DNA from: Octopus sinensis
Lineage: Eukaryota
Length of the DNA stretch: 64,000 nucleotides
Assembly (NCBI RefSeq): GCF_006345805.1
Contig: NC_043002.1
Span: 111,724,001 to 111,788,000 of the forward strand
Direction: 5' to 3'
This document shows, in pieces, positions 36,870 through 56,706 of this stretch. Position numbers and translations under genes: made by a program. Position 1 is the stretch's first letter. Every line of letters begins with the position of its first letter. Below the pieces are notes generated by a model. That model saw nothing but the letters and a program-made list of their open reading frames with translations. It made no database searches and was not told the DNA's origin.

Positions 36870-36956
36870 GCGGTACATATGTTTCGGGCCTTTATTAGAC
36901 GGTTTATAACAATGCATAATTGATGTAAATGTGTGTCTCTGGCCTTCTTCAGCCGC
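36870..36956 (-). ncRNA. Type I hammerhead ribozyme with 50-nt loop II
   Basis: GCGG-CTGAAGA-AGGCC..GGCCC-GAAAC-ATAT-GTA-CCGC. Confidence 0.8.
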
Positions 36957-37374
36957 GCACAATTACTACTTCAATGACATGTATTACATTATAAGTTTTA
37001 CGTTGGGGATGCAAATCCTCATAGTCGCGTACGACAGAGCGAGGCACCAGAACAAACTCAAAGCGTCCATCCCGTTTTTCACTCGATGTAGAATGAGGAA
37101 GTTTGGATGTTGAGATATAGAGGAAAGGGGTTGGGGGGTGAATCTTTAGTGAGTTAGGGATCAAAAGAGGGAGGGTAGTAGGTGCAAAAGGTAGTAAAAG
37201 AGTAAAAAATTACAAAAGAGTAAAAATTAAAAAATATATAAAGGGATAAAGAAATATAAAGGGATGAAGAAATGTAAAGGGATGAAGAACTAAAAGGGTG
37301 GTCAGGAGATAACGTAAGGTACGGAAAGATGACATATTCCGGTTGTTGAAGCCTAAGGTATATATATATATATA

Positions 37375-37481
37375 TAAATGATCCCACTAAATGATCCCAC
37401 TAAATGATCCCACTAAATGATCCCACTAAATGATCCCACTAAATGATCCCACTAAATGATCCCACTAAATGATCCCACTAA
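37375..37481. repeat. Perfect 13-bp tandem array (TAAATGATCCCAC)x8
   Basis: Seen directly. Confidence 0.97.
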
Positions 37482-37519
37482 GAAGGTACATAAATGATCT
37501 ATCAAAAGATGACAGAACG

Positions 37520-38482
37520 GAGCCCCAATGTTTTCAAAAGATGATTGTTAACATTATCGAGTCAACTGATGAGTATTTTTTTTTTTTACAAGGTTTGCTA
37601 AATTCAGGGAACAAGAAGGGACAGCAAAATTCATGAAGTTTCCAGACATTATCAAACTGGGATAACAAAACTTACAAATGTTTTCATGGATAGACATGGT
37701 TGATTTTGGAATGCAGTTGATTTAATTTCAAAGTAGCTCAATTTGGAAGCAAAAATTTATTGATCTCAGATTTGACTTAGAAAATATTGAGAAAAAAAAA
37801 CCATTCGAGACAAGAGTACAGAGAGGAATGCAGAAAAAGAATTATTAAGTACTTGGAATGCCATTCCAGAAAATTTTTCCAGTTTAAAACACTTTGCAAC
37901 GTCACTAATATCCATTTTTTCATCAACATATGCTTGTGAATCCTTGTTCTCAGTGATGAACTTTGCTAGGAGTAACCTGAGGGATGAAACTAGTAGTGCA
38001 TGCATATCTCTGAAAGTTATGAAATATAAACCCGATATAAAATCTTTATCATCAGTGATGCAGTAGCAGAGGTCCCTCCGATAATACTGTAATATACATG
38101 TTTATCGAAAGGAGTCAGCAAATTTTCTGTCAAACTCATATTTCATCCAACTTTTGAAAGTGGGAAAAGTTGTCTGCATGCTTTCTGCCGGACTGATATT
38201 TTGTTTGATGTTTTCTTTTGAAAGTGGCAAAGGTTCATTGTTGTTTAGTTGTAACTTCGAAGGTGAATAAATACATTTTCCATCGTTATATACTGCGTTT
38301 TACTACTCAATGGTGATTTTTGATCATTTTTTAAAAAGGTTCTTAAAATACACTTTCTTAAGTGATATCAAGTAGCCTAACGTTTTCAAAAAAAAAAAAT
38401 TGGTTGGCACGTGGAATAATTTTGTGTCAGAGGTTTTGCCAGTTTAGACACGCAATCTCAAAAAGGTTGCCCATCCTTGGTC
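37520..38482 (+). mobile_element. hAT transposon 3' relic (SPIN/Buster-like dimerisation domain)
   Basis: IFSSTYACESLFSVMN...KYKPDIKSL at about 37910-38060; TIR-like aaaggttgcccatccttg at about 38462-38480. Confidence 0.8.
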
Positions 38483-38559
38483 TAGGGTGTTCGACAAGTC
38501 GCAAATTTCCTTGGTGCATTATAATTGTCAGCTCATTACAGCTGTAATGAGCTGGCAAT

Positions 38560-52770: not shown

Positions 52771-52875
52771 ATATATATAGGGGGGGGGGGAGAATTCACA
52801 AGAAAGCAAAAGACGAAGACAGGTGGTGTAGACAACAAACAAATGCATTAGTATTATGCTCGAGAAGTGAAAAAG

Positions 52876-52913
52876 TCTTTAACGTTTTGAGCCTACGCTC
52901 TTCCACAGAAAGA
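52876..52913 (-). ncRNA. Hammerhead-like motif with variant core
   Basis: TCTTT-CTGTGGA-AGAGC GTAG GCTC-AAAAC-GTT-AAAGA. Confidence 0.45.
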
Positions 52914-53089
52914 AACAAGGAGAGAAAATAAAGACTGTGTAGTAGCTAGCGATCTATCATGACGAATGATATATACATACATAATACATAATATATATAT
53001 ATATATACTATCTAGATATTATATATATTATATATATAATATATATATATATATATATATATATATATATATATATATATATATATATG

Positions 53090-54640
53090 CACGTTGATAA
53101 TAGTTTGCAAATTAAAATCATAACTGAGGAACCATGGATCAACTTAAAATCCATAAGGACAACTTTATAGATAACCCTTCAGTGAAGCTTACTTGGCCCA
53201 CTAAGTCAGATGTTTAAGCAATGTTATTTTAGACAAAGCTGTTCCTTCCCCGTCTTCTCTGTTTTCTTTCAGTCTATGGTCCAATACCGACGACGTCATC
53301 CATTGGTTCTCAAATTTTCGAAACAAAAGTAGATGCTGTTTGCTTCGATTTGACATCAGTCCTTATTATTTTACTCTTATACACATAAAAGCATAGAAAA
53401 AATAAAAATCTACTAAATAACCGTATAGAGTTGGGTGGTCTTGTATTCACTCAAAAATCAAAACTCTAAAATATTTCAAATAGAAATTTGCAAGTTCTCC
53501 TACTGTTGTTCTTTCTAACTACATCTTTTTAATATGAAAATAAATAGTATTTGTACTATGCTAATTTTTAATTGACTTTATAGTCAATTTAATTAACCTT
53601 ACTTAAATCATATAAACTGCTAATCTTTCCTAATTTTTTTTCTTAAAAAATTAACATGTAATACTATTCTCTTAGTGATACATTTGATTTTCACTATAAA
53701 TTTCGAATAAGTAAGATTCCCCTACCATTTGCTATTGAATTTATTTGACCTCTAGATGTTGACCTAAATTCCTTCTTACCATATATAAACATAAGTTAAA
53801 ATAGAAACAATAATAAATAAATAACCTTCTATTCTAGTGTTAACCTTAATTTTCTTACTGTATCTCCCTCTACCGATAACCTATGACCCCTTTAGTGTTT
53901 TCCTTTGATCTTCCTGTATTCTTAATCCCACCATTAATTCTATGAGTTTCTCAGTTCAGAGCTAGTGGTGGTCAAACTTACAGTTCTTTTATGAATTTAA
54001 GATTCCTTCTACACTGACCTAGATTTTCTGTCACCACAGATATAGACTGACCTTTGTCTGTGGTATCTTTATCCCCTTTTGCATCCCCATTTCTTTTCTC
54101 CTGATGTCCTTTGCTTTAGTTAAACCTACCCCGCTGTCTTTCTTGCTACTATAGAATTTTGTCTGCAACAGTTAGATACAAACTTAACCGTGGTATGACC
54201 GGCATCTTTCCTCATGTCCCTTGGAACTTATATCCACATCTTTATGAGTAGATTTATCTTCTCTGGGATGTTAATAATCATTTTAAAAACTTTGTATTGT
54301 TGGAAAACATATATAGTCTGCTTGGAATCTTACTTCAAATCCATGGAACTCACTCCTATAACTTCATAAGGATATTTACACTCTCTAAGATGTTTGGAAA
54401 ACCTATATGTGATTTAGCTGATGAATACTTGACGTTATATTTGCTGTAATATTTGCAGCTTTAAATAAAACGTTTATAGTATGAAACAATTGTACTAAAC
54501 TACCGATCCATTCTTGTTGCTTTTTTCTTGGTTATAATCAACCCACATAAAGAATTAATACCATAAAGAACTCTGGTGCATCTACGTTAAGTACCATATT
54601 CATTTGAATTCATTTGCATCTTAATTGTTTTGCTGAAATA
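53090..54640 (+). mobile_element. Internally deleted PLE: short RT fragment joined to a long non-coding 3' region with hammerhead
   Basis: WINLKSHKDNFIDNPSV, LWSNTDDVIHWFSNFRNKSRCCLLRFDI at about 53130-53360; (TA)n on both flanks. Confidence 0.78.
54413..54499 (+). ncRNA. Type I hammerhead ribozyme with 50-nt loop II
   Basis: TTTAG-CTGATGA-ATAC..GTAT-GAAAC-AATT-GTA-CTAAA. Confidence 0.85.
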
Positions 54641-55502
54641 TATATATATATATGTATATATAATATATATATATATATATATATATATTATATATGTATA
54701 CATATACATATGCATATATGTGTACAGGGCAAGTAACATAAAGAACGACTCTTCATCAACTGTCAGTGTTTATCTACTCCTCATTTCGAGCATTCGACAA
54801 CAATATGAATCTTCAATGACAGTTGCACACATAAGTATCAAAATAAAATTTGGGATTTATGGAGGATCAAAGTTGAGAAGACAGCCGACAACTGATGAAG
54901 GGTGATTCTTTATGTTACTTGTCCTATTTTCCATTTGTTTTTCTCGTTGTTTGCGTATTGAACTCATTTGTTTTCGTATTTCATGTGTGTTTACTATTGG
55001 TGACATATACATATATGTATATATGGTCCTGAACCCATATATATATATATATATATATATACATATATATATATATATATATATATATATATATATATAT
55101 ATATATATATATATATATATATATATATATATATATATATATATATATATATATATACACACATATATATATATATATATATAATATATATATATATATA
55201 CATACATACACACACCTTTTATTAACTTTTAATACTTTTGATATATATTTAAAATAATATAAATTAATTAATTTTATGTATTGGCTTATGTTTTTCATTG
55301 TTTGATTGCGTAATAGTGGTTTTTATCTCTAATTTAATATAATATAATATAATATATTTATACTATAAAATTGGATTTAATCCTAAATCTGATTTTTCCC
55401 TGTAAGTTTGGATTTATTCCCTAATATTTTATTATATATATATATATATATATATATATATATATATATATATATATATATATATATATATATATATATA
55501 TA

Positions 55503-56706
55503 CAAGAAAAAAGCAACAAGATTGGATTAGTTGTTCAGTACAATTGTTTCATACGAAGAACAGCTTTATTAAAAGCTGCAAATATTGCAGCAAATACAAG
55601 TGTCCCGAATTCATCAGCCAAAACACATATGAGTTTTCCAAACATCCTAGGGGGTGAGGCTACACTCATGAAGTATCGAAGAGAGTTCTATAAAAAGCAA
55701 AGTTAGATTGTAAGCAGACTTCAAAAGTTCTCTAATGATGCACAGTTTTATAAAAGGTTTTTAAAAAGGTTTGTTAGCTTCACAGAAAAGGTAAATCCAT
55801 CCATAATAATGCAGGTGTAATTTCCGGAGATATGAGGAGATATTTCATACTCAGAGACGATGAATTTATCCATAATAATGTAGATGTAATTTCCTGATAT
55901 ATGAGAAGATGCTGATCACACTTCTGTTCATTTCACAGAACTACTATGTTGGAAGAAGAGATTGACTATATTGGCTAAAAGAAGTTAGTGAAGCAGAAAC
56001 CGCCCAAATAGGGCATTATGGGACAAATGATAGGAAGGGGTGTAAGTACACAACCTACAAAGAATAGTTTATTTCTGTGGTGACAGAAACTCTAGGTCAG
56101 AGTTGCAGGAATCTGAGATTTATAAAAGAGAACATTACTTTTGACCAACATACAGCTGTTAACTGCCACTCCTACAGATTTAAAAGCAAATATAAGAATA
56201 TAAAGAGAGCAAAAGAAAGTATCAAAGGGGTCAAAGGCTATCAGTAGAGGAAAATACATTAAGAGGTTTAAGTGCAATACTAGAACAGGAGGTTATTTAT
56301 TTATTTATTTATTTATTATTTTTTCTATTTATACAAATGTTTATACATTGTAAGACAGACTTTAGGTCTATACCTAGAGGTCAATTAATTTCTATAGTAA
56401 AAGGTGTGAGAGTATTGTCTATTCAAAATATAGTGAAAATCATAGTGGAAATTCCTTATATTATTATTAAGGGAGTAGCATTACTTATTAAACTTAGAAT
56501 AGAATTAGGAAGTATTAGCAACTTATTTGATTTAAGTTGTGTTAATTAAATTAGATTAAATTAAATTAACTATATAGTCAATTAAAATTTTTGGCAACGT
56601 ACAAATACCATTTATTTTATGGTTAATACCATAAAGATTTCTGGTGCATCTAAGTTAAGCACCGCATTCATGTGAATTCATTGGAACTCACTTGAATCTT
56701 AATTGT
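55503..56706 (-). mobile_element. Non-coding relative of 53090-54640 in opposite orientation, with inverted tail at its 5' end
   Basis: 55503-56620 aligns (reverse complement) with about 53540-54530; 56620-56700 matches 54555-54630 in direct orientation. Confidence 0.78.
55534..55622 (-). ncRNA. Type I hammerhead ribozyme with 52-nt loop II
   Basis: TTTGG-CTGATGA-ATTC..GTAT-GAAAC-AATT-GTA-CTGAA. Confidence 0.72.

Follow-up and report, generated by a model that had tools for sequence, protein, structure and literature searches.

Hammerhead motifs in the window and their host elements

The DNA analyzed here is a 64,000-nucleotide stretch of the Octopus sinensis genome (contig NC_043002.1, positions 111,724,001 to 111,788,000; hereafter the window), in which several hammerhead ribozyme motifs carry a long stem II domain. 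Window motifs were found by listing every CTGAnGA and then measuring the distance to GAAA. This listing reproduced exactly the spacings given in an earlier, sequence-only reading of the window: 60 nt at 36952 (-), 53 at 40769 (+), 57 at 45525 (-), 58 at 54418 (+) and 60 at 55617 (-) for the long motifs, 60 at 2360 (-) and 52 at 57780 (-) for two degenerate motifs, and 22 at 49111 and 14 at 41320 for compact motifs. The hammerheads, with cut sites as predicted, are as follows.

36870 to 36956, minus strand: type I minimal hammerhead, lineage HyC; core 36952-36946, 60-nt stem II domain 36945-36886; AATAAA in the 3' arm, 17 nt before the cut; palindrome CATATG; cut after 36874; assigned from a pseudo-long terminal repeat (pLTR) 71.5% identical over 583 nt to that of L078, where a Hydra-type endonuclease (EN) is present
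40764 to 40845, plus strand: type I minimal hammerhead, lineage HyB; core 40769-40775, 53-nt stem II domain 40776-40828; cut after 40840; a decayed copy with a mismatch in stem I and one in the palindrome; flanks match the EN-linked L081 and L088
45446 to 45529, minus strand: type I minimal hammerhead, lineage HyA; core 45525-45519, 57-nt stem II domain 45518-45462; palindrome CGATCG; cut after 45450; flanks match L077 and L080
54413 to 54499, plus strand: type I minimal hammerhead, lineage HyA; core 54418-54424, 58-nt stem II domain 54425-54482; apical hairpin 54443-54459; palindrome CAATTG; cut after 54494; cofolds as the active dimer
55534 to 55622, minus strand: type I minimal hammerhead, lineage HyA; core 55617-55611, 60-nt stem II domain 55610-55551; cut after 55539; the copy terminates 36 nt beyond the cut in (TA)n
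2279 to 2364, minus strand: decayed HyA-related hammerhead, 60-nt stem II domain
21965 to 22036, minus strand (core at 22032): hammerhead of a further lineage, 45-nt stem II domain, overlooked by the sequence-only reading
57708 to 57784, minus strand: degenerate motif, 52-nt spacing, no homolog among the fetched loci
49106 to 49156, plus strand: compact comparator, a hammerhead of the same type whose stem II measures 22 nt; a decayed Hydra-type EN lies about 550 nt upstream of it

Each of the five long motifs has GAAA, UH and a 6-nt stem III palindrome (with one mismatch at 40769), together with a stem I of 3-5 bp whose first pair is broken at 40769. The pattern CTGANGA-N45-70-GAAAC-N4-GTH matched the window seven times, compared with a mean of 0.035 matches (maximum 1) in 200 block shuffles. 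The CUGAnGA ... GAAA ... UH core that defines the minimal type I hammerhead of Penelope-like elements (PLEs) is thus present in the long motifs. Judged by sequence, they are predicted type I minimal hammerheads with a palindromic stem III, situated in the pLTRs of Hydra-clade or Hydra-like PLEs.

The host elements were examined in loci fetched from the genome, which were stratified by length rather than drawn at random (216 motif hits, 146 of them past the stem filters, in 65 families). L080 comprises a full tandem unit, hammerhead - open reading frame (ORF) - hammerhead, with a period of 4,790 bp, and the hammerhead thus lies in both pLTRs. Flank similarity tied the window motifs to EN-linked lineages, with 36952 belonging to HyC, 40769 to HyB, and 45525, 54418 and 55617 to HyA; other EN-linked copies had stem II domains of 21, 22, 55, 57, 61, 77 and 97 nt. 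By eye, the ORFs of L076, L077, L078, L080 and L088 encode a reverse transcriptase (RT) followed by a C-terminal GIY-YIG EN with CxxC and CxH and no CCHH. The change from DKG to DKT was read in HyA only (PADKTGN in L080), and at the position of the N-terminal RWK motif L080 has RWR, a single conservative change. A CxCx5C linker was seen in HyA, HyC and L229; it was not found in the HyB copy L088, and HyB is therefore named Hydra-like. These elements insert into (TA)n, as do Hydra-clade PLEs. Most fetched lineages had no linked ORF, being truncated copies or tandem arrays of 400-600 bp, and clade assignment is therefore limited to the EN-linked lineages. The HyA ORFs (L076, L077, L080) also contain very long Asn-rich low-complexity insertions between RT and EN.

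Length and fold of stem II

The genome was searched with the pattern CTGANGA-N{a,b}-GAAACNNNNGTH, using the reversed pattern as control. Matches exceeded the control at spacings of 8-30 nt (17,771 versus 1,185), 31-44 nt (5,830 versus 860), 45-70 nt (37,164 versus 1,240, including 25,402 versus 545 at 52-61 nt), 71-100 nt (11,577 versus 1,280) and 101-130 nt (3,356 versus 1,638). The excess for 31-100 nt amounted to 51,191 motifs. Expressed per nucleotide of spacing, the excess was 721 (8-30), 355 (31-44), 692 (45-51 plus 62-70), 2486 (52-61), 343 (71-100) and 57 (101-130). The reversed-pattern control ignores chance pairing of real half-sites, for which the 101-130 nt bin suggests a background about twice that control. 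Compact motifs with a shorter stem III were also abundant (47,661 versus 6,277, overlapping the 8-30 nt set), so that long and compact forms are of the same order. Spacing therefore varies continuously between 14 and about 100 nt, and when weighted by copy number it peaks at 52-61 nt, where the high-copy lineages sit; about a quarter of the first 100 listed matches at 52-61 nt belonged, by eye, to one family. The sequence-only reading had proposed a near-constant length: the genome-wide distribution is indeed not flat, yet the length is not constant.

For comparison of lengths, lineages were defined by clustering of downstream flanks only. This analysis revealed stem II domains of 54-60 nt in HyA, 53-56 nt plus one of 16 nt in HyB, and 50/51 and 60/61 nt in HyC; further lineages spanned 40-46, 44-49, 82-91, 85-97, 24-76 and 14-69 nt. 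Stem II length is a lineage trait, and close relatives can differ by tens of nucleotides. In the 14-69 nt lineage, to which a 77-nt relative was joined by eye, the long members retain the basal helix and have extra AU-rich sequence in the middle.

Folding was surveyed in 51 family representatives with a stem II domain of at least 36 nt. A single unbranched hairpin was predicted for 44 of them, 40 closed at the core (partly an effect of the stem filter), and 30 had a z-score below -2 relative to shuffles. GC content was 0.45 at the base compared with 0.24 at the apex. What the sequence-only reading had treated as loop sequence is mostly an extended helix: the inserts are predicted imperfect hairpins with compensatory changes in their distal part. 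In HyA (21 aligned sequences, 70% mean column identity), the distal pairs alone contained 39 double changes compared with 18.3 in shuffles (0 of 500 as high) and gave a covariation score of 0.373 compared with at most 0.183 for slid controls. The HyB distal pairs (10 sequences) contained 12 double changes versus 5.3 (0 of 500), again above slid controls. By this measure, the covariation within the insert that the sequence-only reading had proposed to look for is present in both lineages. Stem I and the stem III palindrome, both left free by the search pattern, also covary in HyA; all four stem I pairs had double changes and 84.5% pairing, and stem I pairing in HyB was 90%.

The HyA apical hairpin consists of 7 bp with invariant G, A and U positions and is kept across subfamilies, and a mostly-U bulge lies 5 bp from the core. 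The inserts of 45525, 54418, 55617 and 2360 align as a single lineage and have the apical hairpin and A(A/T)TAAA in common, which shows that these sequences are homologous rather than unrelated, as they had first appeared; HyA and HyB inserts have no evident sequence in common, and no insert sequence is common to the lineages. Members of the 44-49 nt lineage have, by eye, a similar TGTAA..TTACA apex. Of the two internal hairpins noted earlier, that at 54443-54459 is real; that at 45466-45489 represents an alternative pairing without support in the lineage alignment.

A proposed dimer model and competing readings

Cofolding of two copies returned the active dimer as the minimum-energy structure for 54418, 36952, 49111, L152 and L020 and a different structure for 40769, 45525 and 55617. 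A monomer would need a longer stem III than this palindrome provides, and the predicted active fold therefore needs two copies. It uses stem III and stem I, with stem II staying intramolecular, and we saw no sign of the suggested aid to dimerization by the insert. Kissing loops were rejected, given that the apical loops, which measure 3-6 nt in HyA and HyB, lack self-complementarity.

With moderate confidence, we propose that stem II grew lineage by lineage into an imperfect hairpin of 31 to about 100 nt while the three-way junction stayed closed and cutting as a dimer persisted; the long stem II likely leaves self-cutting intact. AU-rich segments would have been added at the stem II apex and would survive only when paired, because an unpaired insert would misfold the core. 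Cleavage would require two copies whose stem III palindromes join in an 8-bp helix, with stem I exchanged between them. The element protein probably assists dimer cleavage as in the Poseidon PAc system, in which protein is needed to cleave and the uncut RNA is used (PMC11167929). Once long, the arm could carry lineage-specific signals, such as the fixed apical hairpin and the poly(A)-like hexamer of HyA.

Copy ends bear on the template. HyA copies end 34-39 or 133-155 nt past the predicted cut and HyB copies 53-68 or 209-229 nt past it; because copies end past the cut site, the template RNA would be the uncut form. Between these two ends lies an optional tail, which in HyA and HyB measures about 115-160 nt and so exceeds the 30-40 bp described for other PLEs. 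Stem II as an RT start or a copy end was rejected, since the cut is followed by a further 34-68 or about 110-230 nt before copies end. The only copies that stop inside the arm were the second of the two partial copies below and one (TA)n-expanded copy.

40590 to 40692, minus strand: inverted, 5'-truncated partial pLTR of the same element as 40764 to 40845; begins within stem II and terminates in (TA)n
45700 to 45895, plus strand: inverted partial copy of the 45446 to 45529 pLTR; stops in the stem II apex at a (TA)n run

Several observations weigh against the proposal of growth with cutting retained. Pair-type measures of covariation were not above shuffles (116 of 500 and 307 of 500 as high), the covariation shuffles ignore relatedness, and the tested structures were drawn from the same sequences. 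With RNAalifold, no pairs beyond the basal helix (7 in HyA, 11 in HyB) were recovered, and the apical hairpin was missed. The active dimer was the minimum-energy cofold for 19 of 51 long representatives compared with 9 of 13 compact ones; misfolding may thus be frequent among long arms, and many copies are decayed. An EN-only tree of our own copies left 9 of 14 inner branches open and is compatible with growth or shrinkage and with one or several independent expansions. Finally, HyA, HyB and HyC all lie at 50-61 nt; a favored size or shared ancestry may be the reason.

That shared size is the starting point for a second explanation, in which the extension acts as a functional subdomain, about 55-60 nt in size, and makes tertiary contacts to stem I or binds the PLE protein. 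It would account for the three EN-linked lineages of the window falling at 50-61 nt, for the 7-bp apical hairpin and mostly-U bulge maintained across HyA subfamilies, and for the like apex seen by eye in the 44-49 nt lineage. We consider it unlikely, in view of the excess of motifs at every length from 31 to 100 nt, the abundance of related elements with domains of 14-26 nt, and the lack of common insert sequence between HyA and HyB. The idea of a conserved extra subdomain, as first put forward, thus survives in part: the insert is structured, with compensatory changes beyond the core-proximal helix, but the length continuum and the absence of a common insert do not fit a single near-constant form. 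No single subdomain is shared across the long stem II arms.

The poly(A)-like hexamer raises a further alternative. The motif A(A/T)TAAA is present in 20 of 21 HyA sequences (AATAAA in 12, ATTAAA in 8) and ends 22-26 nt before the cut. In 54413 to 54499 the relevant features are as follows.

54464 to 54469, plus strand: AATAAA hexamer in the 3' arm of stem II, candidate poly(A) signal, 25 nt before the cut
54512 to 54530, plus strand: GU/U-rich tract accompanying this candidate signal

The HyA hexamer with the GU/U-rich tract downstream is the layout of a candidate poly(A) site. The long stem II of HyA, and perhaps of HyC, could accordingly form a poly(A) hairpin, with 3' end processing at the cut site and a fold that suppresses the signal of the upstream pLTR. 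The HIV-1 polyA hairpin likewise suppresses, by its fold, the poly(A) signal in the upstream repeat. Consistent with such a role, the hexamer pairs poorly with the 5' arm (66.7%), a free base precedes it in ATTAAA forms and follows it in AATAAA forms, a GU/U-rich TTCTTGTTGCTTTT tract follows the cut, and AATAAA lies 17 nt before the cut in 5 of 6 HyC copies. Yet no more than 7 of the 51 long families contain the hexamer (the shuffle mean was 3.3, and 29 of 1000 shuffles reached at least that number), 5 of these 7 are HyA, the sequence is AT-rich, the 44-49 nt lineage has ATTAA(C/T) at a like place, and the HyA rows are related and so represent few independent events. We regard this explanation as unlikely for HyA and HyC, and a general poly(A) signal in all long arms was rejected, the hexamer being confined to those 7 families. 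A broader version, to which we give slightly less credence still, would make the HyA arm regulatory, with polyadenylation and self-cleavage competing at one site to decide between mRNA and uncut retrotransposition template, and with A-to-I editing of arm and core by the host shifting the balance. No splice joint or poly(A) end at HyA loci was found among the contig matches listed; these are contigs only and give no verdict.

Splicing signals were also considered. A 5' splice site in the apex of the 44-49 nt lineage (GTAAGT/GTGAGT) was rejected on sequence grounds, as it coincides with the hairpin stem and is broken in some members. In L080, a pyrimidine tract and CAG lie 5 nt ahead of the ORF ATG (6875-6900, minus strand). 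They form a candidate 3' splice site, and the hammerhead might lie within the corresponding putative 5' UTR intron; the contigs showed no splice joint there.

Editing was examined by comparing contigs of four runs (three of them guessed to be RNA) with the HyA copy L077:3990-4372. A>G was the main change on the element sense strand (12 of 21, 15 of 19, 7 of 16 and 8 of 15 places), and its sites included A15.1 (depth 69/172 in X1, 155/238 in X2) and the cut-site A17. The A15.1 and A17 positions were A in all 100 genomic copies listed (of 1,888) and G in none, and all of these edited A's are preceded by U or A, 5' neighbors like those of ADAR sites. These data could mean that the extension makes pLTR RNA an ADAR substrate, with A-to-I editing in the core and stems tuning or silencing the ribozyme. 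The comparison DNA was not from the same individuals, however, and the runs may be from other species; in L080, with the threshold set at 3%, two of three informative runs had A>G and T>C in balance; some sites lie outside stem II; and long double-stranded RNA from inverted pLTR pairs would explain editing without stem II. We therefore hold this role for stem II to be very unlikely. Most improbable is the reading that the long forms are ribozymes no longer active, enlarged by neutral slippage of AT-rich sequence: apices are AU-rich, some copies have (TA)n expansions and many individual copies are decayed, but young high-copy families are fixed for long forms (1,888 exact matches to one 30-nt pattern) and stems I, II and III covary between subfamilies.

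Neighboring elements and comparison with known systems

A nearby RT/EN at 43147-45140 (minus strand; Pfam GIY-YIG) was considered as the source of the motifs and rejected, because its Cys linker differs, being Neptune-like by eye, and its close relatives have no such motif downstream. With L126, L127 and L128 it forms a separate PLE family that includes young copies with ORFs of 800-920 aa and a possible upstream ORF; downstream of the EN, L126 showed no canonical hammerhead. Decayed Hydra-like RT and EN fragments lie at 10852-11313 (+) and 48100-48560 (+). By eye, from known motifs, we take 23916-24951, 58927-59580, 14067-14459 and 34072-34650 to be mariner-like transposase and non-LTR retrotransposon fragments; the last two had no Pfam match. 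A CTGAnGAAGGG repeat family (21044 +, 21568 -, 54892 +) has the first core half with no clear second half or stem II, and is possibly a decayed or rearranged hammerhead.

The motifs resemble the minimal type I hammerheads of PLEs (Cervera and de la Pena 2014, PMC4209133) in their CUGAnGA/GAAA/UH core, short stem I, palindromic stem III, pLTR location, many families per genome and predicted cleavage as a dimer. In that work helix II is 3-8 bp with a short loop, the rows of Fig. S3 examined are compact, and the min-HHR (minimal hammerhead ribozyme) descriptor allows a helix II of 3-7 bp with a 3-10 nt loop, for a domain of at most 26 nt, whereas the domains here measure 31-100 nt in about 51,000 motifs. 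The long motifs are filed as a hammerhead variant because their helix II exceeds this published range. In line with the suggestion that standard covariance models could miss the long form, that descriptor does not capture it. Rfam was uninformative on long versus compact forms, because the compact copy was missed as well: the window had no gathering-level match and no hammerhead among the 150 of 246 matches listed, and at E up to 10 no hammerhead was reported for two long copies or a compact copy.

The host elements are like Hydra-clade PLEs (Craig et al. 2021, PMC8557442) in the C-terminal GIY-YIG EN, DKT, RW(K/R), (TA)n targets, CxCx5C linker (HyA and HyC) and stem III with a longer palindrome. 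In contrast, the 26 of 26 Hydra rows in File S2 of that work are compact, at about 12-25 nt (22-23 nt in Hydra-1_oBim), and published Hydra-clade PLEs are below 3 kb compared with the 4.8-kb period of the full-length element here. The only similarly long hammerheads in the literature compared are those of two spike-moss PLEs, PLE-X1_sMoe (about 54 nt) and PLE-X1_sTam (about 47 nt), which File S2 marks as departing from the canonical structure; these are two single families of a plant EN-minus clade, not treated as a class and with no genome-scale length series. The methods of the same paper mention Naiad half-cores 35-50 nt apart, which are not called hammerheads.

Retrozyme-like tandem arrays with 400-600 bp units and hammerheads with a 43-76 nt stem II were seen outside the window in L054/L058, L062, L095, L186, L222 and L237, with L222 carrying a short GAAACGTT stem III; in all of these except L062, each unit was found to have a type I hammerhead and no ORF. 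They resemble non-LTR retrozymes (PMC7229834; bioRxiv 10.64898/2026.07.22.740005), although published ones have canonical compact hammerheads. In the discontinuous Clec2 hammerhead (PMC6765202) the core halves are also far apart and the ribozyme is still active; unlike here, that insertion spans hundreds of nucleotides, belongs to a mammalian mRNA and is no trait of a retroelement family.

The sections covered of the literature searched (including PMC3088659, PMC7229834, PMC6765202, PMC6155905 and PMC6962438; Lunse et al. 2016 and Arkhipova et al. 2017 fell outside the search) contained no report of a long-stem-II class, which is apparently undescribed at such scale. In this genome, the class that hammerhead censuses with the standard descriptor would overlook is about as numerous as the compact motifs, and PLE families may be scored as ribozyme-less only through their long stem II. 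The natural length series, which runs from 14 to about 100 nt and in which close relatives occur at several lengths, provides test cases for the role of the PLE hammerhead and for what cutting needs. Taken together, these comparisons place the long stem II as an elaboration of a known ribozyme in a known retroelement clade, not as one conserved new subdomain.

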